From positions 1-41,644 of IMG/VR virus record IMGVR_UViG_3300032285_002367: DNA of 41,644 bases; one strand, given 5' to 3'. Source of the stretch: a virus. Lineage: Duplodnaviria > Caudoviricetes. The position numbers and the translations under genes are program-made. The notes beneath the pieces were generated by a model, which was not told the origin of the DNA, did not search any database, and was given only the letters and a program-made list of their open reading frames with translations. This document shows, one piece after another, positions 8,348 to 30,461 of this stretch. The stretch's first letter is position 1, and every line of letters begins with the position of its first letter.

Positions 8348-10436
8348 ATACGCTGTTTTAATCACTTGTCAGGAATATGTAGAAGTAGATGCTAAGGACG
8401 CAAGAGACGCAGAATGGGTAGCTTATCAAGATTACAGAAAAGGCGAGCTTGAGATTGAACCGCATTTTGTTTTTGTATGCGAAGAGTGCGATTTAGTGGA
8501 GGAAGAATGAAAGCTATGATTGAAGTAGATATTCCAGCAGGCAGGTCAATAGCTGAAGCACACGCTGCAGTTAAGCGGGCTTTTGATGAAGATTGGGTAT
8601 CAATATGGTGGCATATATCAGATGTCCATGAGCAAGCTAATAATTGGGATTCAGACGAACCAAACGAGATAACCGACGAGGAGGCAAGGGAAGTGCTTAG
8701 ACTTGCCGATAAGAACCATGACAGTAATGTAGGTATTTGTTGGGAAGTGCTCGAATCGTGGATTGATTATGTAGTCCAGCAAAGGAGAAAGAAAGCATGA
8801 CACGCTATCAAATGCAACATGAAATTTATACTTTGATGATGGATATTTATCCTGAATTGCAGCATCAAGAATTAGAAAACCATCTTGTTAATTTATGGAA
8901 ATGCACAGACGACTATTTAATGAAATATCTTGAAACTACAAAGGACATAGCATCATGGAAATTACATTGAATTTAGAGCAATACAACAAAATACGCCGAT
9001 TAGGAGATTTTGCCGATTGGTATTTAGAAAATATGGAAACCAGCAATAGAGCTTATCAGGCTGATAAAGAAGATATTGATTGGGCTCATGAAGTATTCCA
9101 AGAAATTGACGCAAAACTAAGGGAGAAGTTATGAACAGAGATAGCATGGTGCAACGCTTAATTCAAGATGACATCAATACGATTGGGCAGGGTTTTGAGG
9201 TAGGCGATACTGATTACTTATATGACATTCTTTTAAATAATATAGGCTATGATAAGCAGACGCTGCGAGAGATTATTGACCAATACAACGCAAGAACATG
9301 GGAAACCGAATAATGGAAAAATGCACAATTTGTAGCGTAGAGTTTTCTATTATGAAAGAGGGCGGGATTGCTGGTGAGTTTGGAATTTTACCGGTGCAAT
9401 TTTGCCCGACATGTTTATGCTGTATTTTAGATATGACAGAACAATTATTAGGAGAAGATTATGAAAGCATTTCCAAGCAGAGCACCAATTAACGCCGATT
9501 GCATTGGCATTGTAGAGAACGCCGGCATGGACTTGCTGGATTATCACGCCGCCAGAGCCCTACCCTTAGCATACGCATTTTATAAAAACGGGATTGAGAG
9601 TGATGGCTGCGTATTTGAATGGGACGGAGACGACGACGAACCAACCATTGATTTAAACCTAGTCAGTAGATACGCTTATCTTTTAGGTAAGGCTATGCTG
9701 AAAGCTAAAAATGAGCTGGGTTGATGCATACGCACAATTTATTGAACAATTATATGAAAGAAAAGAAATGAAAACATATGAAGTAGTTTTGCACTTTTCC
9801 GGCAGCCATGTTTGTTATATCTCAGCACCGGACGAAGACGAGGCGATAGATGTTGCACATGACGAGCTTGCCAATATGCACCAGCTTGATAACTTAGAAG
9901 TCATGGATGTTGAAAGCTGCGAGGATTCTGAGGACGACGAGGACGATGGATTTTGAGCTTTACTATTTACCAATCGGACGGATTAAAGGTCATACAATGG
10001 TTTAAGACTATTGATGACCTTCTTAAATCTATGCGGGAAAACCCTAATAATACATACCATAGGAACACATGAGGATATTGACCGACCGGACTACCTTATT
10101 GCAGGCAGTCGATAGATTAGAGGCTAAAGGGGGTTTTGCCAATGCACTTGGTAAAGCAGCCCTTTTAGCGGATAATGAGAACCTGAAACGCCTTGTAAAC
10201 GCTTTCCCTGAATTATTCGAGACTAAGGTCTCTCTCAGATTGATTAAATGAACGCTACGATAATCTACTTAAAAGATGGTAAAAACGGGATGGTTGAAGT
10301 CTCGATGGAAATTATCGGGCAGCCTAACCAATCTTTCCTATTGAGTAAGAACATTGGTGAAAAGTTAGCCGAGCTGAAGATTACTAAGTTTTGCGACAAT
10401 GAATTTACGCAAGAGCCGCCGGAAATGCTGCAATAA
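8340..10436 (+). other. Further coupled small hypothetical early genes (8340-8510, 8507-8800, 9131-9313, 9313-9492, 9461-9724, 9768-9956, 10069-10251, 10248-10436)
   Basis: ORF track with RBSs and overlaps; no recognisable domains. Confidence 0.65.
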
Positions 10437-11202
10437 GCAACTTCCCAGCTTCGTAAGCACCCAATCTTAATTCAGCGTCATTAAAATCTTCCTTTTCAAT
10501 ATCGGAAACCCAATGGGGATACCCTTGTGCTACCTTGATTCCTACGGGGTCATTATCAGCCACGATAACGCAGTCAGGATAAGACTTTGCCATATCTGAT
10601 AGATTACCAGCAGAGAAACATACAACGAGCTTATAGCGGGTTTTGTTGCATTTTAGAGCCCGTCTTACAGACAAGGCAGTCGCCATGCCTTCACAGAGTA
10701 TCGGGATACCCTTGTTATCCATGATATATACCGCACCTTTATTACATTGTCCGGATAAAAACCGCTTAGTCCCATCTTGGGATATGGTTTGCAGACCGGA
10801 AATATTCCCATCAATCCGCATGGGGATTACTAGATTACCCTCCCACACATACCCTTTTAACTCGGGAAAACCTTTAGCAGCTAAATACGGGTGCGTTGTC
10901 TCAGCACATTGTGAAAGTATCCAGCTTGCCCGCTTAGCTGCGGCAGCCTGCCTTTGAAGGGTAATTTCCTGAGATTTTTTGCGTTTAGCTGCTAATTGAG
11001 GGTCAGGCTTGTAGTCTTGGCCTCGCCAAAGAACGGGCTTCTCATGCTTACTCCAATCTTGAAGAGCTCCACAATTTCCAGAATAGATATACGAACCATT
11101 CCGCTTATTTGGGTGGTCTAAAGTCTTTACCCTTGTCCATCTGTCATATACGAGATGGTCGATAATTAATCCGTGCTGCTCTGCAAAAGATTCAAATGTC
11201 AT
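10405..11202 (-). CDS. Toprim-domain primase-like protein
   Basis: HPYL..KG, LVIPM, LQ.I..DG.KRFL.G, CEG.ATALS, FSAGNL and ADND Toprim motifs. Confidence 0.88.
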   Translation of the reverse strand: MTFESFAEQHGLIIDHLVYDRWTRVKTLDHPNKRNGSYIYSGNCGALQDWSKHEKPVLWRGQDYKPDPQLAAKRKKSQEITLQRQAAAAKRASWILSQCAETTHPYLAAKGFPELKGYVWEGNLVIPMRIDGNISGLQTISQDGTKRFLSGQCNKGAVYIMDNKGIPILCEGMATALSVRRALKCNKTRYKLVVCFSAGNLSDMAKSYPDCVIVADNDPVGIKVAQGYPHWVSDIEKEDFNDAELRLGAYEAGKLLIAAFPAALA

Positions 11203-12677
11203 GCTGCTTTCCTATACTGTTTTGATTTTGAATAAGCAATCATTCTGCTTTTAATCCAACTAAGGGTCTGCTGGGAAGGCGGACGGGGCTCTACCTTTAA
11301 TCCATTAGGATAAGCATCAAACTTCTCCCGATACTTAATTGCTGCCCAACCTTCTTTATATCCCTTCATGCGTCCGTAATAGACTAATTCGGAATAGAAG
11401 TGGGTATTTTGTATTTGGAGCTTCTTATTTGCCTTATCTAGCTCTTCAAGAGTGCCAGCTATGCTTATAATAGAACTTAGAGCTTGCCTGACGTGTCCAC
11501 AGGAGGAGCAAGTATTGTTCGGAGATGTCCAAAGTGCGGCACAGGCGGGACACTTCGCTGCTTTCTTTTCTCTTTCAGTAGGCTCACGCTTAGTTACTTC
11601 ACCGCCGGTCTTGAGCTCCGTTACACCGTCGTGGTATAGGCTTTCCCAATCATCCCTGAACCGCAGGAAATTGCCTGAATGGTCTAGCAGGACACCGAAA
11701 TCCTTACCATCGTGAGGTCTTAAGATGCGTCCTATTTGTTGAACATGACTACTAAAGGACTTACTAAACGGTCTAGCAGATATGCCAATACAAACATCGG
11801 AAACGTCAAAACCCCGAGTAAGAATATCAGTGGCAATAAGACCATGAATATTAGTATCAGGTTTACCGAAGTCTTCAATAGTATCTCTTTTAAAATCATC
11901 GTCTTCCTTGTATGAAATAGACACAAAGTTATAACCGGCTGCTTTAAATTGGGTTACGAGTTCCTTGCCGTGCTCTACACCAGCACAGAACACGATAGTC
12001 TTCATTGGTTTGCCGTATATCTCATAGGTTTTTTTAACCCATTCCGCAACAATATCTCCGGTAATTTGAATACCTCGGGAAGTGGCTTCTGCCTGAGACC
12101 ATTCGCCGGCAATGAATTTTGCACCGGTCATATCAATTTCTTTGGCGATATAAACCTTCAGCGGCACAACCCAACCCTCTTCCACGAGTTCCTTCATGGG
12201 AGCTGCGCCAATAACATTCGTGTAGATGTTACCAAGACCGCTAGTAAAAGGTGTGGCAGTAAGACCGACTACTTTAATTTGAGGATTCTCTTGAATGAAG
12301 TCCACAGTCGATTTATACATGACATGGCACTCATCAACGATAAGCATATCAATATCTGGAAACTTGCGGCGGGCTAAAGTTTGAGATGAACAGATTTGGA
12401 TAGGTTCAAATGGACGATTGTTCCAATGACCACCTTGTCTTACTCCATGCCGGATGCCATATTTGGTTAATCTTTTGCTGGTCTGGTCAACCAAAACTAT
12501 CCGGTCTAAAACCATCGCTACCCGCTTACCTTCAGATGCGGCTTGCTGCATGATAGCCATAGCACATTCTGTTTTGCCGAACCCTGTAACGGCACAGAGA
12601 ATTTGGCGGGTATGCTCTTTGAAACCTTCGTTTAACTTCTGGATTACTTCAGATTGATGCGAGCGTAAAACTAACAC
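11199..12677 (-). CDS. SF2 DNA helicase (RadD/YejH-like) with C-terminal zinc finger
   Basis: TGFGKT, DECH, GLTATP, LTRGFD, QQIGRILR, CPAC...CSSC; AGGAG RBS before GTG. Confidence 0.93.
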   Translation of the reverse strand: MLVLRSHQSEVIQKLNEGFKEHTRQILCAVTGFGKTECAMAIMQQAASEGKRVAMVLDRIVLVDQTSKRLTKYGIRHGVRQGGHWNNRPFEPIQICSSQTLARRKFPDIDMLIVDECHVMYKSTVDFIQENPQIKVVGLTATPFTSGLGNIYTNVIGAAPMKELVEEGWVVPLKVYIAKEIDMTGAKFIAGEWSQAEATSRGIQITGDIVAEWVKKTYEIYGKPMKTIVFCAGVEHGKELVTQFKAAGYNFVSISYKEDDDFKRDTIEDFGKPDTNIHGLIATDILTRGFDVSDVCIGISARPFSKSFSSHVQQIGRILRPHDGKDFGVLLDHSGNFLRFRDDWESLYHDGVTELKTGGEVTKREPTEREKKAAKCPACAALWTSPNNTCSSCGHVRQALSSIISIAGTLEELDKANKKLQIQNTHFYSELVYYGRMKGYKEGWAAIKYREKFDAYPNGLKVEPRPPSQQTLSWIKSRMIAYSKSKQYRKAA

Positions 12678-12739
12678 TAAGAACTCCTAACTGCCAAGAA
12701 ACCGCTTGGCATCGGGGGAAATACGGTTTATGTGAAGTG

Positions 12740-13141
12740 TTATACAGGTTTTTTTAAGTCGCCGAGCCGACTTTGTAAGTCCCCCCGATATATAAATGAT
12801 TGAACCTTTTGTCTTACTGTAATCTTATCTAGCTCAACATACCATTCGTGTTTATACCTATACTTTTTAACTAGACAATTACCTAAATCTATGTCCTCAT
12901 CAGAGTCATGCCAGCATACGATAAGTAAGGACTCACGAGCATAGCCAACCACATCACAAAGCCGCTCTAAAGCAAGTCTTTGTCCTAAATCCATTTCCTT
13001 ATTGCCACGCTTGGCTTCAATAAAAATAAAGTATTTGTCATTGACTTCCATAAAGGCATCAATGTCAGTAGGGTATTTGGTATCAAACCGCAGATTCTCG
13101 AATACGCATTTTTGGTGAAAGCCGTGCTGGTCTTTTATCAC
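12740..13141 (-). CDS. Hypothetical protein, possible PD-(D/E)XK fold
   Basis: TDID...FIFIEAKR resembles D...E.K catalytic spacing. Confidence 0.55.
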   Translation of the reverse strand: MIKDQHGFHQKCVFENLRFDTKYPTDIDAFMEVNDKYFIFIEAKRGNKEMDLGQRLALERLCDVVGYARESLLIVCWHDSDEDIDLGNCLVKKYRYKHEWYVELDKITVRQKVQSFIYRGDLQSRLGDLKKPV

Positions 13142-13898
13142 TTTGCTTTACTCTTCCAATAGTTTATTTGACCGACCGATTGGGCATTCTTGGTCTGATA
13201 GAAATCACGGGAGGCTTGCAATGCTTTAATCTCCGCAGCTTGAGCCGCAATCTTGTTTTGAAGTTCCTCAATGATAGCTTCAGCATCCCATTCCTCACCG
13301 AGTATTTCTTTCTCAAGTTCAAGTATCGTCTTCTCATTCATTTCAAACTTCTGAGAGCCTGCTCCAGCTGATGTTGTGTTGCTTTACTGTTATTAACAAT
13401 TCTTTGTGCTTCATTACAGCGTTCTTTCCAACGAATAACTTGCTGGACTGAACCATTTTTTACGGCGTCCGGAATTTTGCTCATTTGTTCTTGTATTTGT
13501 TTTCTAATGTCATTCATTTCTCTTGTGTCTTTCTTAGTATTGCTCTAGCGAACGCAATGTAATCTTCATCTTCCATTGAAATTGTTTGAGGTAAAAACTC
13601 CATTTCTTTTAATATTTCCTCATCTGTTAGTGTCTTTGCTGGATGGATGTAGAGTGGAATGGTGTAGCCACCTTCAAATCTTGTATGTTCGTCAGGATGG
13701 ATGGCATCCATAAAAGTATTGCCCTTAAACATAGCCCACGCTACTGGCTCATTGTTCATTTAACTGCTCCACCAAAGCAGCAATCTCTTCAGACTGCAGA
13801 CGCAATACTTTAATTGCTTCTTGAATAAGCTCTAACCCCTTTACATGGGGATTTCCATAACGCTGGTCTAACGCCTCAATTAGTTCATTTGTATTCAT
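13138..13898 (-). other. Four coupled small genes (13138-13341, 13338-13517, 13514-13759, 13749-13898)
   Basis: ATGA overlaps; two (59 and 49 aa) are below the ORF-track cutoff and were translated by hand. Confidence 0.65.
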
Positions 13899-14059
13899 TT
13901 CACATCCAATACGTCACTTGCCTTGATGCCACGCTTTTCAAGGGCTTGCTTTAGTTTTTCCAATGCTTGTTTCTCATAATAGTTGACGTAAGAACGATGC
14001 ATCCCTAGCCTGTCTGCTACTTCTTGCTGCGTCATATGGTAATAGTCTTTTTGATTCAT
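13895..14059 (-). CDS. Small HTH protein (sigma70 region 4 / Cro-like), 54 aa
   Basis: Not in track. MTQQEVADRLGMHRSYVNYYEKQALEKLK; AAAGGA RBS; first gene of the replication operon. Confidence 0.75.
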   Translation of the reverse strand: MNQKDYYHMTQQEVADRLGMHRSYVNYYEKQALEKLKQALEKRGIKASDVLDVK

Positions 14060-14139
14060 ACGTTGTCCTTTCGTTTGCTCGGTCTTTTACTGTATGCCCG
14101 CTTTTTTAGTATTCCTATAGGTGTTTTCCACTACCAATC

Positions 14140-14440
14140 CGTCTTCTCTCATAGGACAGGACGAGAGGGTGATAAGCACATAGGATAAATATGTGTATTC
14201 ACCGCATCTTCAGCCGACTTTCGTCCACTGCTCCCTGAGGTACTGTTCGTCTTCCAGAGCGCCTATCAACTAGAGTCGGCCATACTCCCCTACATCACCC
14301 ATCATGCTCTGTTCGTGTGGATACCCAGTCAAGTCCCACTGCGCCGTCCTGTCAAATCTTTCGATATAAGCGCAACCTGTCTTTAATATCTCGGTCATTA
14401 GATATATCCATGTAAGGTAGCTGGATGAACCGTCTGTATC
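14140..14440 (-). ncRNA. Candidate large structured RNA (or structured origin element)
   Basis: No ORF. Nested perfect helices 14155-63/14345-53, 14167-73/14294-300, 14213-19/14274-80, 14177-82/14190-95; GAAA tetraloop hairpins on the minus strand. Confidence 0.55.
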
Positions 14441-14447
14441 GTCGCTC

Positions 14448-14600
14448 TACGGCGGAAAAGGAAAAACCTCATAGGGTATGAAGTCTGATTGGACATTCGC
14501 TTATGTTTACTTCCCGCCACCTAAACATAAAAGAACAGTTCAGACCCCATACAATATGAGGCTTACGGCGGAAAGTTTAACATAAAAGAACCGTCCAAAG
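14448..14600 (-). ncRNA. c4/CI-like antisense RNA or attenuator element
   Basis: Long interrupted hairpin 14467-14561 whose loop and bulge are complementary to flanking repeats at 14448-58, 14564-74 and 14593-98; followed by a U-rich tract on the minus strand. Confidence 0.6.
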
Positions 14601-14617
14601 TCCGTTTACGCAAATGA

Positions 14618-14626
14618 AGTGTATCA
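14618..14626 (-). promoter_or_regulatory. Extended -10 promoter for the replication leader
   Basis: Minus-strand TGATACACT. Confidence 0.5.
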
Positions 14627-14762
14627 CAAGATTTAAAAAAAGTGGAGCTGTCGCAAATATAAAGCAGACATTTAAGCACCTTTGTCACTCCGAAACATCC
14701 TCACGAGATGAACTTTTATTATAATACCGGTCGTTTTGCATAGTATTAGGGTTTACCCTACA

Positions 14763-14791
14763 TTGCACTGCAACATAATGTGTAATATAAT
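14763..14791 (+). promoter_or_regulatory. Sigma70 promoter with palindromic operator over -35
   Basis: TTGCAC-N17-TATAAT; palindrome TTGCACTGCAA at 14763-14773; TAGGGTTTACCCTA immediately upstream (14747-14760). Confidence 0.75.
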
Positions 14792-14824
14792 AAACAAATC
14801 AACAACTAACCTATGGAGAAAACC

Positions 14825-14953
14825 ATGTTTTCATTTGAAGAGCAATACAAAAAGTTTGAAGAATTAAACGAGCGCACCAAGCAAGCCTATGAGTTTTGGG
14901 TCAAAGCGGTCACTTCTACAGTAGAAGATTTCTTCAAGCCTAGAAAGAAATAA
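14825..14953 (+). CDS. 42-aa amphipathic helical protein in a stand-alone transcription unit
   Basis: Not in track. GGAG RBS; MFSFEEQYKKFEELNERTKQAYEFWVKAVTSTVEDFFKPRKK; has its own promoter and terminator. Confidence 0.75.
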   Translation: MFSFEEQYKKFEELNERTKQAYEFWVKAVTSTVEDFFKPRKK

Positions 14954-14972
14954 GCTAGATTCTTTCTACAGA

Positions 14973-14995
14973 AAGGGGGCTTTGCTCCCTTTTTT
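14973..14995 (+). terminator. Rho-independent terminator
   Basis: AAGGGGGC-TTT-GCTCCCTT stem followed by a T run. Confidence 0.8.
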
Positions 14996-15018
14996 GTTTC
15001 TCAAAGTTTACAAAACTA

Positions 15019-15264
15019 CCGATATATACACCTGTATACACCGAAATAGATATACATCGGACAACACCTTCTAGAAAAAACGCTGTAAGTGCATGAAATT
15101 TCAATAAAAAATCATGCAAACATAGGACATTGTCAGGCATAGCAAAAAGTTTCCCGAACGGGAAAAATTGATGAAAAAGTAGGCAAAAATAGAAAAATAT
15201 TCCCGAACGGGAAATTAGTACCTTTGAGTAGCAAATTAAAGAAGTCTTTAATACCTTTAGGTAT
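15019..15264. repeat. Cluster of paired operator-like palindromes
   Basis: TTCCCGAACGGGAA x2 (15151, 15200); TGCATGA..TCATGCA (15090-15118); CCGATATATA..TATACATCGG (15019-15060); TACCTTTGAGTA and TACCTTTAGGTA (15219, 15252). Confidence 0.8.
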
Positions 15265-15607
15265 CATTTAAGTATTCTTTAATAGTAACTTGGCAGCCGC
15301 CACCTTTAATTTTGTCGCCCCGCTCTACTGTTAGTTTCCATACCTGCTGGTCGTCGTCATAAATTATTCCATTCATGGAATCTAGGACGCACTTGCAAAT
15401 GTTATCTATGTCCAGCAGCCGCTTGTCTCTTGGGTAAAGGATGATGGATACCTCTACCGGCTTATCTCCAAATGTAGCAACGTTCCTACATATTTCTTGA
15501 ACGGCTTTTTTAAATTCCATTCCACGCTTGGAAATGTACCGGCGATGACCGCTAGCCAGCCAATAAGCGTTGACGCTACAAGGATAAGGAAACGTTAGGG
15601 TAAGCAC
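15257..15607 (-). CDS. rusA: RusA-like Holliday junction resolvase
   Basis: P..SVNAYW, DIDNI.K..LDS..G..YDDD.QV motifs. Confidence 0.92.
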   Translation of the reverse strand: MLTLTFPYPCSVNAYWLASGHRRYISKRGMEFKKAVQEICRNVATFGDKPVEVSIILYPRDKRLLDIDNICKCVLDSMNGIIYDDDQQVWKLTVERGDKIKGGGCQVTIKEYLNDT

Positions 15608-15642
15608 TGATACAACACATGAGAGAAAGTGGGTACGATGTA

Positions 15643-15671
15643 TTGACTTGTCATATTGAAAGCATTATATT
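15643..15671 (+). promoter_or_regulatory. Sigma70 promoter of the rightward middle operon
   Basis: TTGACT-N17-TATATT, then AGGAG and ATG 15692 (35-aa hydrophobic ORF 15692-15799). Confidence 0.7.
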
Positions 15672-15783
15672 GGACTTAGAGGAGACTGTCTATGAATGAT
15701 ACTTTAATGAGCATTGCAGCTGCGTCTATTGTTGTAGTCTTTGCGATTGTGTTCTTTCTTTGTGTGCTCATAGGCAACCGTGT

Positions 15784-16681
15784 ATGGTCTTGGTTATAAA
15801 ATATTTTGTAATTTGTTTTTCAATTGTTCTTTGTTCCTATGTGTTACATGTAACGCACGACCCTAAGATTGTGTACGCCTGTTCCGAGGTAACAGAGGAC
15901 GACCCTATTGATGTCCAAAGGAAATGTTATGGAAATAAAGTTAGAAATCACCAGAGAGAATGAAGATGGCTCAGCAGATGCAACGGTTCACTTTGACAAA
16001 GAAGGATTGGCTTTCTTGGTTCAAGAAGGAATTATCGCAATCCTATGGCAGTACATTAAACAACAGGAAACCCATGGCAAGAAGACTGTCAAAAGCAAAG
16101 AGGATAGAAAACCTAATAAACCCGTCAGTTCAAGAGGCGTTAGAGCGAGAGCAAAGAAACTACAACTTTGATTTGCATCAGATAGTAGGACGCACTAGCC
16201 GTAGTGCTTCAGAGGCTTTTAAGGACGCTGAATATGCATATGCTATTCATAAGTTTGATGATGACTGGGCTTGGATGGTGCGGCGTTTTTATAAACCCAC
16301 AATGGATTTTGTAATGTCGGCATTTTTAGGTGGGATGGCTGTAGGATTTATTTACTGGATAACAAGATGAAAACACGATTTGATTTAGAGGACGAGATAT
16401 TTTCCGTAGAGCAGACCGGCAAAGATATCGAGATGCTGTTTAAAACCTACGGCGACCGGTCTTGGCCTATGACTGAAGATGAGGTAATGAATGCCCTTCT
16501 TGGAATCTATACGCTCCATGAGATGCGCTGCTATTGGTTAGACGATACTTACAAACAAGTCCACCAGCTTAACGAGTACGCAACTCCGGAAGTAAAAGCC
16601 CGCCGAGAAGAGCTTATGGGCAAGATTTTAAAGAAAAAGAAAAAGAAGAAAAAAGAAATAGACATAGATGGGCGCTGCTAA
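15784..16681 (+). other. Hypothetical middle genes (about 15784-15963, 15929-16171, 16074-16370, 16367-16681)
   Basis: ORF track; starts uncertain. Confidence 0.55.
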
Positions 16682-16824
16682 TGAACAACATAGTAAGAGC
16701 ACGAGTAAATAGTGATGTTAAACAACAAGCTGAAGTAATTTTAAAGGCTCATGGACTTTGTTTATCCGTTGCCATTCGGATGCTTTTAACCAAAATAGCT
16801 AGAGAAAAAGAATTTAAATTATGA
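16681..16824 (+). CDS. RelB/DinJ-family antitoxin-like RHH protein, short (47 aa)
   Basis: Not in track. IVRARVNSDVKQQAEVILKAHGLCLSVAIRMLLTKIAREK matches the DinJ/RelB N-terminus (VRARI...LK..A..VL...GL..S.A.R..LT..ARE); coupled on both sides. Confidence 0.8.
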   Translation: MNNIVRARVNSDVKQQAEVILKAHGLCLSVAIRMLLTKIAREKEFKL

Positions 16825-24110: not shown

Positions 24111-27100
24111 CTATTTCTTTAGCGACTTTCTCATTTCCTCGACTTGTCTTGCCATATCTGACATCATAATTTTGATGCGTGCCATCTCATCTCTGCGGTC
24201 TGCTGGGTCTATTGCTTGATTGGTTTCTACCATACGGGCTTGCTTACGCAGCTGAGCCAATTGTTTAGTAGTTTGGTCATAAACTTTGGCAAGAGCAATA
24301 TCATCACCCTTCTCTTCCATGATTTTCTGTAGCTTCTCAGAGTCGCCAATTTCGGCGTAGTGACGCATATCTGCTAAGGCCGACTGGATTCTTTCATTGT
24401 TCTGATAGAACTGTGTCATGTACTTAGATTGAGTCTCCGGCATTGTCTTAATAAAGCCAAGTGCTAATGTATCAATGATTGGCGGATGAACCTTTGCACC
24501 TTCTTGGAATGGCTCTACAGCTCTATCTGCAGTCGATACGGCAGTAGCACCCATCCAGCCTAAGTAAGCCTTAATAGCGTAATCCATTTGAATAGGAGAG
24601 AACCCTTGTGCATCTGGATTAAATGTTAATACTTTAGCTGCTGCTTCAGACACACCGCCTAATGCCTTGGCAATGCCGCTTGTCTTCTCAGTAGCCCGCT
24701 CTTGCTTAGATAAACGCTCCATACCAGCAGATTCGATTGGAGCACCAGTAAAGCTGTCTTTATTAGAATACAGGTCAATCATCGGCTTAATCATTTGTGG
24801 CATTGGATTAAGAGAGAATGTATCCATCAAGATAGAGTTCAGACGATTACCAAAGACTTTGCCTTCTACATTCTCATCTGTAATCTGTTCAAGTGTACGC
24901 TCTGCAATCGTTCCAAGGGCGCCAATTTCAAATGGCTTAGGAATACGGAACTGGGTATCACCGACTTTAAACCACCAAAAGTTATCTCTATCCCAATCTT
25001 CACGGCGTTGGAAGTCTTCATCGTCTTTATATGCGCTGTAAAGGACTATAGATGCCAACATAATTGCGCTAGAGACCGCTGTAAATCGTGCTGCCTTTTT
25101 CTTATCATCAATATCTAATGGTTTACCCGTAGCCATATTGTAGATAACACGGGAAGTCGGAGAAATTCCGTCTCTACCTAACTTGTATAGACCCTGTAAT
25201 CGGGCATTAAAGAATGGAACTACAGAACCAATTACTTTAATTGCACGGAACTGACCTTGCATAGAGAAGTCCATGAGGTCACGGGCTGCATATGATGCCT
25301 CTAAATGAGACTTACCGCTATCAATTAACTTTTTATAAAGCGCTAGACGGTTAGCATTCTCAAATTTATTACCTTGTTCGTTATACCAATCTAATGCTTT
25401 CTGTAAATTAGCTTTGACCTTTTCCGGTGTATCCAAAATTGTTCCGGTAGATACGCCTTTGTCAATCAGTCGCTTAATTAGCTTAGCTTGGTTGCCTTCG
25501 TGAGCTGTGCCCATTTCAAAAATGCCGCCGCCAGCCAATGCTGCTACGAATGTTGGATTACCCTTTTTGGATAATGCCAATCCATCATAAATATTGCTTG
25601 CAAGATTAGGCGATAAATCGGAAATAGCGATAGAAGATAAAGAGTCACGGATTAAGTTGCGTACCTTATAAGCTGGGCTTAAAGTGACGCCATAACGTAA
25701 TGCATTAGTAAATCCTTTGGCAATATCCAAGAATGCTGACTTTGGTCCAAGATAAGAGATAGTAGAAATAGCATCTACTAGGTCTGGGTCTGACAGCGTA
25801 TAGTGAGCTGTCTTACCTTCTTGCATAATCTTAACGGTATTAGCAGGATACTTGCCATCCATCGGCTTAGACTTCTCTGCTACATCCATCATCTCTGCAG
25901 CTTTAATTGTATTTTGTGCTGCAATATTTTTAACGGATGCTGACAGGATATGTGACCAGTTAAGCAGCACGTTTTCCATTAAGTCATTTGTCTTCTTCTC
26001 GCCGCCTTTTAAGGCTTTGCTAAAGTATTGACCGGTTAACTTAGAGGATGAGCTGACAGATTGAACATCGCCGTCTTCCATGGCTTTATAGAATGGAATG
26101 TAGTAGATGTCATTAGAGAAGTTCTGATAACCTTCTGCATCAATAATGCCGGCTTCTTTGGCTACGTTCAATACGGAACGATTTAAAGCGTTCTCTTCAT
26201 TTAATGCAGTCTTATAGACATCTAAACGAGATTTGCCGTCCAGCTGGCCTTTAGTTAATTCATTGCGTCCTGCAATAACATCTGCTGGGAAAGACGGACG
26301 TGCCGGCTCTTTTAACTCTTTTCTTGCTTTTGGAGGAATCTGTTTCCATCTTTCATAGCGTTCTGCAATTTGAGCATCACGACTTAATGCTTTCCATATT
26401 TGGTATTGGTCTACTTCTGAACCTAATGGAGCAAGAATTTCTAATAAACCTTTTGTGCCGGGCTTAATGTTTAGCGCCCCGTTATCTAGGAATACTTGAC
26501 CGTACTCTAGCAATCCTTGAAGACCGCCGTCAATAGACTTAGACAGACGGGCTTGCATATATGCTTCATCGGAATAGTTTTTAATGGCACGGAACTCATC
26601 AAATACACCAGTTACCATGCGGTCAAAGAAGTTAGTCTTTAGATTATCAAACTTCTCTTTAACAGTAGCCTTCTCTTGAGTAAACTGTTTGCGTATCTTT
26701 TCAGCATAATTTGGGTCTACATTAGAGAAGTCTGCCTGCATTGCAGAACGGCTTTGTAAAATATCAACATCTTCTGGATTAAATTCTCCAGTATTACCAA
26801 TAGCAGATTTAATTTGATTGGAATCAAAAGCTACCCAATGATTGCCGCCATCTTGAAAACCATCGTACCCACCAGCTTTTAAAACACGTTGCATGGCACT
26901 GGTAGGAAAGCTAATATTTGGAAAAATTCCGGGAGCATAACTTCTTCCAGATTCGCCACGCTCTTTCATAATTTCTGTTTTTTCTTTTGCGTATATTGCA
27001 GCTCTTTCGCCAAGGTGAGAATTGCTCTTAATAACCTCTTCTTCGTATGCTTTAAGCATCTTAGGTGTTACTTTGCTACCTTTAACAAAAGGATTTTTAA

Positions 27101-30100
27101 TGCTTAAATATGTTGGAATAACTTCAGAGCCTTCAATTAAAGCATCTTTTTCTAAGCCCGTTGAATAGCCTGATGCTTCCTTGGGGTCTGTTGTGAAGTA
27201 ATAGCCATCTATATTTCCTGACCTATTTACTTTTTTACTTGGCTTAAATACATTACCTTCAAAATTTACAGTTCCGTGGTACATAACTTTAGGGCTGCCA
27301 TCTTCATTAACAACTTTGCTATCTCCAAACCATTTTTTGAATGCCGGAGTTATTTGTTGTTCTTTATTGAATAAAGATTCCTGTGTTCCGGTAAATGGTT
27401 TTGCTTTAAGCGTTCCAAAACTATACCCTGCAGACTCTAGTCTTCCTGCAATAACTTCAATATCTTCGTTAAGGATGGCTTCAGATGTCTTGACCAATCG
27501 GTCTAATGCGGTCTCATAATTCTTAGCAATTCCAAGTATTTGTCTTACAAGCTCAACTAACTTAGTAAATGCTGTCTTCTCGCCAACTTTAATTTCACTT
27601 AAGAATTCCTGCATATTCTTGTCGGTTAAACCCCAAGATACTAACTCATCAATATCCCATAAAGCGTTAATTTCTCGTTTGTACATACGCTCCATAAATG
27701 GAGTCATGTCCTTTTCTTTAACTTTTTGATTGTAATAATCAATTACACTATTTCTAAGTTCGTGTAACTCTACAACTAACGGGTCATTCTTAGAGCGTAA
27801 CTTTAATTGTCCTCTGGTTGCAACGTGTAATAACTCATGCAGCACAGTGGCGTAATTCGTGCCGGGAGGATAACCCAATTGATTTTCTAATACAGCAGCG
27901 CCGTTTAAAGTTAATCTAGCAGATGTTTGCTCTCCAGTTTTGCCAAACTTAAACTGAACTTCACCTTTTGCATTAAACATTCCAGAGCGTCTAGTGTCTC
28001 CAGTCTCAATATTAAAATCTAATTTAATGCCACGCTTTTCCATCTCCTTGATGCGTTTATTGACCATATTGGCAATAACTTTAGCAAAGTGATTCGGAGC
28101 ATTCTTGATAGACCAGTCAGACAATTCCAACATGGTTTTGCCGGTTAACTCTTTCTCAATACGCTGGTCTTCTTCTTTTATCTTGGATGGCTCTTCCTTG
28201 GAGAACATAATGTCCCCCTCTTCCCCGATATTAGTAGATGGCGTTACTGGTTCAGCTTCTTCAATAGGCTTTAAATCTTCAACAACTTTTTCCGGAGCCA
28301 CAAACTTTTCTGATAAGTTTGCCGCTGCTTGCTCTTCAGTAGGAATGTTTTTTAACAGCTCTTTGCGTCTTTGAACTTCATCGTCCAGCTTCTCATACTC
28401 GTTATAGATAGCTTTGTATTGAGCATCTGCTTGTTCTAATCCGGGAGTTGACACAACATCCCCATCGTATAACGCTTTAATCTTGTCCGCTAATGCATTA
28501 ACGCCGCCATTGTCATTAGGATTAAAGAACTCTTCGTCAGATAAATAGCCTACATCATGAGCAATTGCCGCTAAATCGTCTAAGTCTTGACCTTTTGGAC
28601 GGTCATTAATAAAAAATCCTTTTTGTTGCGACTTAGTAAGTAATTTGTTGGGTGGATGCCGTGGATTAATAAATTCAGAATAGTAATTACCCTTTAATGG
28701 ACGGGCTTGTAAAAACTCTTTAAACGCATTATTTGCTTTTGTAACTTGTGCACGAGCAGCTTCCAAGTCTTTGGACATCGCCTTGACTCTTTGCTCATAT
28801 CCTTTGGTTTCAAAGTTAAAGATGTCTTGTTCTGTTGGATTAATTACAACATTTCTGTTGTCTTTAAATGACTCTACGACTTTGCCATTTTCATCTAAAA
28901 GGTTAACGCCGCTTGCTGTTTTATTTGGAACGCCCTCATAGAACTTAACACCCTCTACTGGGTCAAATACGGCAACCGTCTGCATTGGAGATACTGCTGG
29001 CTCCTCTGGTTTAGGGGCAAAGAATAGCCCGCCTTCTGGAGTAGCATTCTTAAATGCCTCTTCTGCCTGTTTACGGCGTGCTGCTTGTTCTCTAGTAACA
29101 GTTTCTTTATGGGTAAAGAACTTTTGCATCGTAGGAGAATTGGCTCTTGCCTCATCCCAACGGGCTTTCATAATAGCGGCTTGGTCTTCTGGCTTAGCAA
29201 AGGCTTCTGTAGTCCCTGTTTGAGTCGGCGGATTCATGCCAAAACGCTCTTTAAAGGCTGCGTTCTCGTTAGTTGCTACTCTGCCATCAGGAAACACATA
29301 AAACGTCTCAGAACCGCTAGAAATCGGCGCATTAGGGTCATATGGCAACGCTGCTAATTGTTCTTTTGTCTGGGCTGCTGCTGGACGTGGAAGTTGTAAG
29401 GGCTGTGGCTCATTACTTTCCTTTGCCTTAGCCTGAGCTTCATCAAATAGCTTCTTGGCATTTTCTAATTCATTAGCATTTGCCAAGTTTACAAAGCTAG
29501 ACGGCAGACCAAAGGCTAAGCCACCAAGAGCTCCTAGACCTGCTGCTGCTCCAACACCTTTAAATATGTCTGTTTCTGGCTTGACTTCTTGTAGGGCAAG
29601 GTTAGACGCTAATTGACCACCAGCCTCTTCTACACCTTCACTTAGGGTTTCCCCTAATGTTCCACGGATAATACCTTTTTTGGGCGCTCCAGCCATGCCA
29701 CGGGTTAATGCTCTTTCAATCGTTGAGCCTGCCCCAAAAGACGTTGCAACAGTTAATGTTGCTGCCTCGATAGCCGCTATACGGGCTTTAGCAAGCGCTT
29801 CTTTAACAGCTGAGTCCTTGTCATAGCCTTGATTGATTAACTCGTCATAAACCTTCTCATAGGTGTCAGAACCGATGTCTGCACCTTGCATGATTGCGCC
29901 GGTACCAATAGCTCCACGAGTACCTGATTTAGCCAACGCTTCTTCAGTAGCATTTCTCATGAGCATCTTAACGCCCTGCTTAGTCGCTAAGCCGCCGCCC
30001 ATAGTTCCAATTAAATTAGGAATCTGTTCGGACAAGAATGAAGTTAATAGAGCTGGGTCTGTAAATGTGCTCTTAATTGCAGTGCCGGCCTCTTCCCAAA

Positions 30101-30461
30101 AACCTTCTGCTTGATTAATTTTCTGTGACCGTAATGCTTCTTTAGCTTTTAAAACTGGAGATTTAGCTTGTTCTGCAAACGTCTCTAATTGACGTCCAGC
30201 ACCTTGAAGTCCTAAGTCTCTTTCTTCTGGAGTAAATACACCCATTAACTCACCGACTTGACCCGGCAATTGGGCTAGTCCAGCAACGCCTTTTCCAAGT
30301 CCTGCAGCAATATCAGTTGCAGCTTGACCCCAAGTACGCTTTTCATTTAGAGCTAATTCTGGATATGCGTTTAGTATCTTTGCTTTAGCAGCAGACGGGT
30401 CTAAATCATCCGGAATGTTCTCTACCAACGTCCCGTCAGGTAACTGAATGTTGTAAGGCAT
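24111..30461 (-). CDS. Large polyvalent internal virion protein (zincin HELLH, ART-PolyVal-like domain, LPD38-like C-terminus)
   Basis: VLHELLHV; FKKWFGDSKVV..DGSPKVMYHGT...GYYFT...YLSIKNP...GYDG...QIKSA; C-terminal PFFNARLQG and RIPKPFEIG. Confidence 0.8.
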   Translation of the reverse strand: MPYNIQLPDGTLVENIPDDLDPSAAKAKILNAYPELALNEKRTWGQAATDIAAGLGKGVAGLAQLPGQVGELMGVFTPEERDLGLQGAGRQLETFAEQAKSPVLKAKEALRSQKINQAEGFWEEAGTAIKSTFTDPALLTSFLSEQIPNLIGTMGGGLATKQGVKMLMRNATEEALAKSGTRGAIGTGAIMQGADIGSDTYEKVYDELINQGYDKDSAVKEALAKARIAAIEAATLTVATSFGAGSTIERALTRGMAGAPKKGIIRGTLGETLSEGVEEAGGQLASNLALQEVKPETDIFKGVGAAAGLGALGGLAFGLPSSFVNLANANELENAKKLFDEAQAKAKESNEPQPLQLPRPAAAQTKEQLAALPYDPNAPISSGSETFYVFPDGRVATNENAAFKERFGMNPPTQTGTTEAFAKPEDQAAIMKARWDEARANSPTMQKFFTHKETVTREQAARRKQAEEAFKNATPEGGLFFAPKPEEPAVSPMQTVAVFDPVEGVKFYEGVPNKTASGVNLLDENGKVVESFKDNRNVVINPTEQDIFNFETKGYEQRVKAMSKDLEAARAQVTKANNAFKEFLQARPLKGNYYSEFINPRHPPNKLLTKSQQKGFFINDRPKGQDLDDLAAIAHDVGYLSDEEFFNPNDNGGVNALADKIKALYDGDVVSTPGLEQADAQYKAIYNEYEKLDDEVQRRKELLKNIPTEEQAAANLSEKFVAPEKVVEDLKPIEEAEPVTPSTNIGEEGDIMFSKEEPSKIKEEDQRIEKELTGKTMLELSDWSIKNAPNHFAKVIANMVNKRIKEMEKRGIKLDFNIETGDTRRSGMFNAKGEVQFKFGKTGEQTSARLTLNGAAVLENQLGYPPGTNYATVLHELLHVATRGQLKLRSKNDPLVVELHELRNSVIDYYNQKVKEKDMTPFMERMYKREINALWDIDELVSWGLTDKNMQEFLSEIKVGEKTAFTKLVELVRQILGIAKNYETALDRLVKTSEAILNEDIEVIAGRLESAGYSFGTLKAKPFTGTQESLFNKEQQITPAFKKWFGDSKVVNEDGSPKVMYHGTVNFEGNVFKPSKKVNRSGNIDGYYFTTDPKEASGYSTGLEKDALIEGSEVIPTYLSIKNPFVKGSKVTPKMLKAYEEEVIKSNSHLGERAAIYAKEKTEIMKERGESGRSYAPGIFPNISFPTSAMQRVLKAGGYDGFQDGGNHWVAFDSNQIKSAIGNTGEFNPEDVDILQSRSAMQADFSNVDPNYAEKIRKQFTQEKATVKEKFDNLKTNFFDRMVTGVFDEFRAIKNYSDEAYMQARLSKSIDGGLQGLLEYGQVFLDNGALNIKPGTKGLLEILAPLGSEVDQYQIWKALSRDAQIAERYERWKQIPPKARKELKEPARPSFPADVIAGRNELTKGQLDGKSRLDVYKTALNEENALNRSVLNVAKEAGIIDAEGYQNFSNDIYYIPFYKAMEDGDVQSVSSSSKLTGQYFSKALKGGEKKTNDLMENVLLNWSHILSASVKNIAAQNTIKAAEMMDVAEKSKPMDGKYPANTVKIMQEGKTAHYTLSDPDLVDAISTISYLGPKSAFLDIAKGFTNALRYGVTLSPAYKVRNLIRDSLSSIAISDLSPNLASNIYDGLALSKKGNPTFVAALAGGGIFEMGTAHEGNQAKLIKRLIDKGVSTGTILDTPEKVKANLQKALDWYNEQGNKFENANRLALYKKLIDSGKSHLEASYAARDLMDFSMQGQFRAIKVIGSVVPFFNARLQGLYKLGRDGISPTSRVIYNMATGKPLDIDDKKKAARFTAVSSAIMLASIVLYSAYKDDEDFQRREDWDRDNFWWFKVGDTQFRIPKPFEIGALGTIAERTLEQITDENVEGKVFGNRLNSILMDTFSLNPMPQMIKPMIDLYSNKDSFTGAPIESAGMERLSKQERATEKTSGIAKALGGVSEAAAKVLTFNPDAQGFSPIQMDYAIKAYLGWMGATAVSTADRAVEPFQEGAKVHPPIIDTLALGFIKTMPETQSKYMTQFYQNNERIQSALADMRHYAEIGDSEKLQKIMEEKGDDIALAKVYDQTTKQLAQLRKQARMVETNQAIDPADRRDEMARIKIMMSDMARQVEEMRKSLKK

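Follow-up and report, generated by a model that had tools for sequence, protein, structure and literature searches.

Control of the replication genes

What controls the replication genes of this phage, and could it be an RNA? The window, which is the whole stretch of 41,644 nucleotides that was analysed, is one phage contig with a CheckV completeness of 66%. On its minus strand, Pfam matches outline an operon (10405-14059) with an HTH gene (13895-14059), small ORFs, a DEAD-type helicase (11199-12677; best match at 54% to an uncultured phage), and a Toprim primase (10405-11202). The original prediction had placed a two-state RNA ahead of this HTH-helicase-primase operon. This position holds, and in those relatives with enough sequence the helicase or the same upstream small genes come after the element as well. 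We think it fairly probable that the element is a two-fold RNA leader acting as a same-strand antisense attenuator, which provides a lineage-specific shut-off of the replication operon.

Anatomy of the element

Read along the minus strand, the element starts with P1, an extended -10 promoter-like site (TGTGA-TACACT, 14618-14628) with a predicted start near 14611. Next is a leader hairpin (14580-14611), supported by folding and covariation, whose loop (UUGGAC, 14593-14598) is termed address b. P2, another extended -10 promoter-like site (TG-T-TAAACT, 14574-14582), has its predicted start at about 14564-14567, at the base of a long interrupted hairpin (14464-14564) that is apparent from folds and pair conservation. 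Address a (UUUCCGCC, 14564-14574), which covaries with the apical loop, lies between the P2 -10 box and this hairpin. The hairpin is built from four segments (1, 14555-14562; 2, 14542-14550; 3, 14478-14486; 4, 14465-14473), an upper stem (14522-14530/14501-14509), an apical loop (GGUGGCGGGAAG, 14510-14521) that constitutes anti-a, and a 3' bulge (GUCCAA, 14488-14494) that pairs with address b and constitutes anti-b. After segment 4 comes a U-rich tract (14456-14466), the predicted termination site. The segments can pair either as 1:4 and 2:3, forming the long hairpin, or as 1:2 and 3:4. All motifs of the original prediction were found at their positions (cctcata 14467-73/tatgagg 14555-61, ttatgttta 14501-09/taaacataa 14522-30, ttggac 14489-94, and gtccaa 14593-98). 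Not included in it were the pair of tandem promoter-like sites, the hairpin within the leader, the symmetry of the four segments, and the structured RNA that comes immediately downstream. A promoter and terminator consensus scan reported neither P1, P2 nor a terminator at the element.

Address a is the upstream copy of a repeat (TACGGCGGAAA) that is found at 14448 and 14564 with 11 of 11 identical positions, and another repeat (AACATAAAAGAAC) is found at 14524 and 14579 (repeat families D16 and D5). Exact repeats of at least 11 nucleotides appeared in none of 300 mononucleotide shuffles of 14431-14640. The apical loop pairs with the repeat at 8 of 8 positions on the minus strand (one G-U pair) compared to 7 of 8 on the plus strand. 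The G-U pairs, together with the orientation of the genes downstream, assign the RNA to the minus strand.

Relatives and conservation

First homologues were reached via relatives of the helicase, and a pattern was then built from the invariant stems. With this pattern, 24 of 25 matches in viral contigs and 39 of 49 in metagenomes were real; the other one and ten, respectively, were dropped as chance matches. The truncated element L359 was also dropped. The scan of the GTDB genomes gave three matches, none of which was accepted by the family HMM, and thus provided neither a prophage copy nor a host. Neither cultured phages nor plasmids matched the region in blastn, and the model R2 recovered the element in one of five relatives' records. 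Pattern scans starting from the window's own repeat resulted in 119 loci each, almost all unrelated, with no strong alignment in the first set and two in the second. Many loci represent one contig present in two collections. The final set comprises 41 distinct near-full elements with 36 distinct cores, all from uncultivated phage and metagenome contigs.

The common order is P1 -10 box, leader hairpin, P2 -10 box, address a, segments 1 and 2, upper stem, apical loop, 3' bulge, segments 3 and 4, and U-tract. The U-tract follows segment 4 in all 36 cores, consistent with the terminator shape that had been proposed. Column identity is 0.97 in the stem segments versus 0.52-0.70 at the recognition sites, and the 36 cores contain 28 distinct apical loops of 17 types. 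The inner stem of the leader hairpin is paired in 96% with two-sided changes at four of its five pairs. It is well supported that this leader family is real and structured. The T, A, A, and T of the P1 hexamer are invariant in 36 of 36 cores, and P1 was parsed at the same place in all 41 elements. The G of the P2 box is invariant and its T, T, A, A, and T are conserved to at least 90%; neighbouring positions vary at both -10 sites. Three P2 variants without TGn (L190, L357, and L398) have TGGACT-17-TATAAT. As the -10 box at the hairpin base is conserved, the small RNA might be transcribed directly rather than processed from a longer one.

In one relative (L385:740-917, minus strand), the leader does not match its hairpin and different address types are joined at the invariant stem, which makes it either a recombinant or an assembly chimera. 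Four loci upstream of the Betaproteobacteria-1 RNA (RF02932; L138, L189, L196, and L421) have a reduced form consisting of a P1-like site, about 20 nucleotides, one short CCTCA/TGGGG hairpin (-9 to -10 kcal/mol), and a U-tract. The switch seems to have been deleted there. The same anatomy is also present in elements unrelated in sequence, of which L146-L148 and L155 have two -10 boxes and matches of both loop and bulge, and L141 and L143 have the bulge match.

Covariation of the loop and bulge with the leader

If the loop and bulge recognise the leader, they should change together with it. Across the 36 cores, the apical loop pairs with its cognate address a at -13.0 kcal/mol compared to -6.8 kcal/mol for non-cognate addresses, and the bulge with address b at -13.6 versus -9.5 kcal/mol, each with 0 of 20,000 permutations. 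The match of the bulge to gtccaa in the leader, noticed before in the window alone, thus extends to the family. The covariation holds with one representative for each of the 17 loop types, and for 8 of the 17 no other partner pairs as well as the cognate. In the pairing of bulge and address b, 88% of the cells are paired and four of the six pairs show two-sided changes. Over the 13 pairs of the leader-captured fold there are 96 cells with a two-sided change against 37 in shuffles, and slid controls are lower, although all column pair counts are inflated by relatedness and the loop columns align poorly (63% paired).

According to the original prediction the loop is complementary to both flanking repeats, and the element is a nested RNA that has targets both upstream and downstream, as known from c4 and CI. 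The upstream half of this scheme is what covaries. The downstream copy (14448-14458) is real as a sequence, and the window's own loop does pair with it (-14.4), but across the cores the loop covaries neither with the 40 nucleotides downstream (-10.0 versus -9.9 kcal/mol, 8356 of 20,000 permutations) nor with 600 nucleotides (3021 of 20,000, 31 cores). Among the nine cores belonging to the window's clade, six retain the TACGGCGGAAA copy or a near copy together with different loops. This copy comprises the end of the U-tract and the 5' strand of the closing helix of the RNA downstream. Because the downstream copy is constant while the loop changes, a second target in the c4/CI manner is refuted, and the compensatory changes expected in homologues are confined to the loop and bulge with the upstream leader. 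Membership in the c4/CI family is therefore contradicted at the family level. That the element is nevertheless a diverged member with upstream and downstream targets is highly improbable: its overall order does resemble seqA-CI, and the window's loop fits the downstream copy, but besides the missing covariation none of the Rfam models C4, c4-2, and isrK matches. In addition, the ORF starting from an ATG in segment 4 ranges from 8 to 179 codons, and there is no conserved uORF from this segment.

Two folds and their polarity

The prediction of two mutually exclusive folds on the minus strand is borne out by computation. Without the leader, 14460-14564 folds into one long hairpin of -40.6 kcal/mol (z -5.3, 0 of 200 shuffles; plus strand -33.2 kcal/mol, z -5.4), and the fold flips when the leader is added (14460-14600; -53.8 kcal/mol, z -7.0). 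In the computed folds of all 36 cores, the leaderless RNA takes the 1:4 long hairpin and the leader forms its own hairpin. All four address and anti-address sites remain largely free of pairing when the RNAs are taken separately (0.66-0.87); for address a in the isolated leader, P is 0.87. The nascent P1 RNA is computed to be leader-captured in 35 of 36 cores before segment 3, in 32 at the end of segment 3, and in 9 when six bases of segment 4 have been added; if the leader is removed, 2:3 forms in 36 of 36. At equilibrium, the full-length P1 RNA prefers the long hairpin in 30 of 36 cores and the leader-captured fold in the window and five others. Thus, computation and covariation agree on two exclusive folds, one of which is a terminator-like hairpin with a U-tract as in an attenuator. 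In class III elements, the computed leader trap was not reproduced at the one cut examined (four of four).

Based on these data the following scheme is proposed. P1 would produce a long RNA carrying addresses a and b, and P2 an RNA of about 105 nucleotides that lacks the addresses, folds as the long hairpin, and ends at the U-tract. As long as the small RNA is absent, the P1 leader would capture its own loop and bulge and lock segment 1 to segment 2, leaving the weak 3:4 hairpin, and the polymerase would read on into the downstream structured RNA and the helicase-primase genes. Once the small RNA accumulates, the loop and bulge that it exposes would pair with a and b on newly made P1 RNAs, 1:4 would form, and transcription would stop. 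With varying addresses each lineage would answer only to its own RNA, resulting in immunity or incompatibility groups or in self-limiting replication. The immunity or dormancy role of the original prediction is an inference. The leader might thus be a kinetic antiterminator that is disarmed by the trans-acting P2 RNA.

A purely cis-acting kinetic attenuator, with a fixed or speed-dependent fraction of read-through and no trans RNA, is an alternative. Every covarying pairing can be intramolecular, and the trans binding is predicted to be weak at equilibrium, with a cognate mean of -1.8 versus -0.7 kcal/mol and 24 of 36 cores below -0.5 (window -7.4 kcal/mol) by a method that cannot model kissing contacts. 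However, it would leave unexplained why 28 loops in 36 cores stand beside near-invariant stems, and why a second -10 box is placed such that its RNA excludes both addresses. We therefore regard cis action alone as quite unlikely.

Concerning the polarity, the same parts could also work the other way round, with the leader-captured fold ending in 3:4 as the terminator. The 3:4 hairpin is a canonical local hairpin, its pairing is kept at 96.5% with no C-A combination, and relatives with a short hairpin exist. Segment 4 is paired beside the U-tract in both folds and 3:4 is well kept, and therefore the polarity is not fixed by the sequence. Similarly, the four short-hairpin relatives imply that a terminator-like hairpin at this place need not shut the operon off. 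Against the reverse polarity, 3:4 is weak, with a median of -5.4 and, for many of the members, only about -3 to -4 kcal/mol, and U-to-C changes in segment 4 of 10 of the 36 cores gain a G-C pair in 1:4 and break a pair of 3:4. The gain from closing 1:4 has a median of -14.4, which is not a like-for-like measure against the 3:4 median, and the long 1:4 stem is the candidate for the stronger terminator of the two. Because 3:4 is well kept, trans binding is weak at equilibrium, four relatives have a short hairpin, and the class III elements show no trap, polarity and trans action are put forward as hypotheses. As another variant, the two folds could steer the folding or processing of the downstream RNA without any termination. 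This would be similar to ColE1, where RNA I controls the primer RNA II. Taken together, reverse polarity or control without termination is a conceivable but not a likely explanation, and for the second variant the downstream RNA has to be considered.

The RNA downstream of the element

In the window, the element is directly followed by a conserved non-coding stretch of about 300 nucleotides on the minus strand (14150-14458) that is predicted to be structured. It is common to the nine cores of the window's clade (the window, 14150-14455; L120, L140, L194, L367, L376, L387, L391, and L400) and contains long-range helices and a GNRA-capped hairpin. Its consensus fold shows two-sided changes at 5 of 73 pairs in six sequences of two types, and the stretch has no Rfam match. 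Only small shares were found in sequencing runs. Contigs from four runs (three metatranscriptomes and one guessed to be RNA) map at 14210-14490. One of them (X1), which extends over 14083-14565, has a different loop variant and differs upstream by 14 letters. These contigs are a weak hint of transcription, because other genes are covered by X1 and X6 as well and the contigs could derive from DNA.

The window does not contain the Betaproteobacteria-1 RNA, whose start coincides with the U-tract in 22 of 30 related loci tested (9/10 and 13/20), and three cores have an ORF in place of a downstream RNA. A structured RNA beginning exactly here, with another one in the window's clade, is what would be expected if the folds acted on the downstream RNA, and RNA-based prophage origins are described for mycobacteriophages in the accessible part of PMC7157519. 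Against this, clades keep the switch but differ in the RNA downstream of it, which is exchanged or missing. For a wider survey upstream of the Betaproteobacteria-1 RNA, 72 distinct regions (74 of 120 loci with enough flank) were combined with nine from helicase loci. A long hairpin with a U-tract is present in 41 of these 81 regions, and 33 of them have a 3' bulge. These bulges have a perfect match of at least six nucleotides in their own leader in 24 of 33 cases versus 111 of 1056 comparisons with other leaders, and the apical loops of the same hairpins in 10 of 33 versus 101 of 1056. Of the 72 surveyed regions only 3 are members of the window's sequence family, and the design is therefore found again in sequences without relation to it. 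In this way a genomic context and a testable role emerge for the orphan Betaproteobacteria-1 RNA, whose motif is present in an estimated 680 viral stretches.

Comparison with known systems

The window has no match to Rfam at the gathering thresholds. Within 13700-16000, at E-values up to 10, there are eight weak matches, none of them over the element, and the 30 related loci match RF02932 only, which is a neighbour of the related elements and not the element itself. The Rfam models isrK and C4 do detect relatives of the P4 immunity RNA.

In P4, the CI RNA binds seqA and terminates the replication operon early, as described in the accessible parts of PMC4825925, PMC10111431, and PMC3632133. The element shares with seqA-CI-seqC a same-strand RNA whose unpaired parts are complementary to an upstream leader site (a1b1 or seqA in the known systems) ahead of replication genes, with termination documented in P4 and predicted here. 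Unlike P4, there is no covarying counterpart of the downstream a2b2 or seqC, no kil/eta-like gene or integrase was found, and Rfam gives no match. Also, CI is cut from a precursor, whereas a promoter and a terminator of its own are predicted for the small RNA of the element, and in contrast to CI the element is a single long hairpin with four-segment symmetry.

The c4 RNA pairs in an allele-specific manner. The element resembles c4 of P1/P7 and the a1b1 motif (RF01695; Weinberg 2010) in this respect and in its two address sites, but it gates a helicase-primase and has no second target pair, whereas c4 gates the antirepressor, whose synthesis it represses according to the accessible part of PMC8546580. 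The alignment rows for C4 in the available portion of PMC2864571 show a multi-stem RNA. For IsrK of Gifsy-1, the accessible text of PMC4825925 describes a short and a long isoform from one locus, of which the former acts in trans on the alternative folds that the latter can take. Whereas IsrK activates translation and forms the 5' piece, the predicted short RNA of the element is the 3' hairpin and would repress. The portions of the literature covered by the full-text search contain no description of the element and no function for the Betaproteobacteria-1 RNA; the supplements of PMC5737381 and PMC10690425 could hold the motif as an unannotated candidate. Therefore, by analogy the element likely works by a seqA/CI-like logic, which is already known from P4, but stands outside the catalogued RNA families.

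Lifestyle and host

The original prediction had noticed neither an integrase nor a repressor in the window, and this agrees with the relatives. Searches found no tyrosine integrase in six records, no resolvase in three, and no S24 repressor in five; only two of the records are at least 90% complete, and none of the three was found in these relatives (100% and 93%). The temperate setting with an integrase or repressor that is typical for C4/CI elements is therefore not seen among the records searched. The Ash family (PF10554) has no match in five records, although no control genome matched either, and a PHROG scan of 71 of the 77 ORFs of the 100% complete relative showed no icd/kil (Ash) or antirepressor gene. 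A gene with a weak ParB-like match (PHROG E-value 2e-10, no Pfam ParB match) is present in five of five relatives searched; none was seen in the operon of the window. Betaproteobacteria are suggested as hosts by the name of the Rfam family alone, and the freshwater label is tentative, derived from one named helicase match and the run labels.

A speculative extension, to which we attach little probability, is that these freshwater phages without integrase and repressor use an RNA-only, address-coded incompatibility system. The two-promoter switch, with an address inside the promoter of its own antisense RNA, would license a structured RNA downstream of it, either Betaproteobacteria-1 or an uncatalogued substitute, to start replication, and would allow a plasmid-like or carrier state. 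If this is true, the orphan Betaproteobacteria-1 RNA gains a function. In general, the element suggests that RNA alone controls the replication genes in abundant uncultivated phages without the usual temperate markers, and such phages may therefore be misjudged as strictly lytic. The 17 natural address types constitute a ready set for tests of orthogonal RNA switches.

Neighbouring features

Upstream of P1, the window (about 14636-14712, minus strand) and L190-L195 contain a second small unit with a -10-like site and the conserved motif TCTCGTGAGGA, to which relatives add a GC hairpin with a U-tract; it is possibly a separate small RNA. CGTGAGG is also found in the apical loop of L141 and L143. 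Beside the element, in the window (14813-14953, plus strand) as well as in several relatives, there is a divergent ORF of 46 residues, followed by a terminator at 14970-14994. The ORF has 31 homologues, all unnamed, and matches neither Pfam nor PHROG. The palindrome TTCCCGAACGGGAA occurs twice (15144-15165 and 15193-15214), 49 nucleotides apart, and may represent protein-binding sites. Further away, the window encodes a RelB-like antitoxin (16681-16824, plus strand) with no toxin partner annotated alongside, and a polyvalent virion protein of 2116 residues with ART-PolyVal and LPD38 domains (24111-30461, minus strand).
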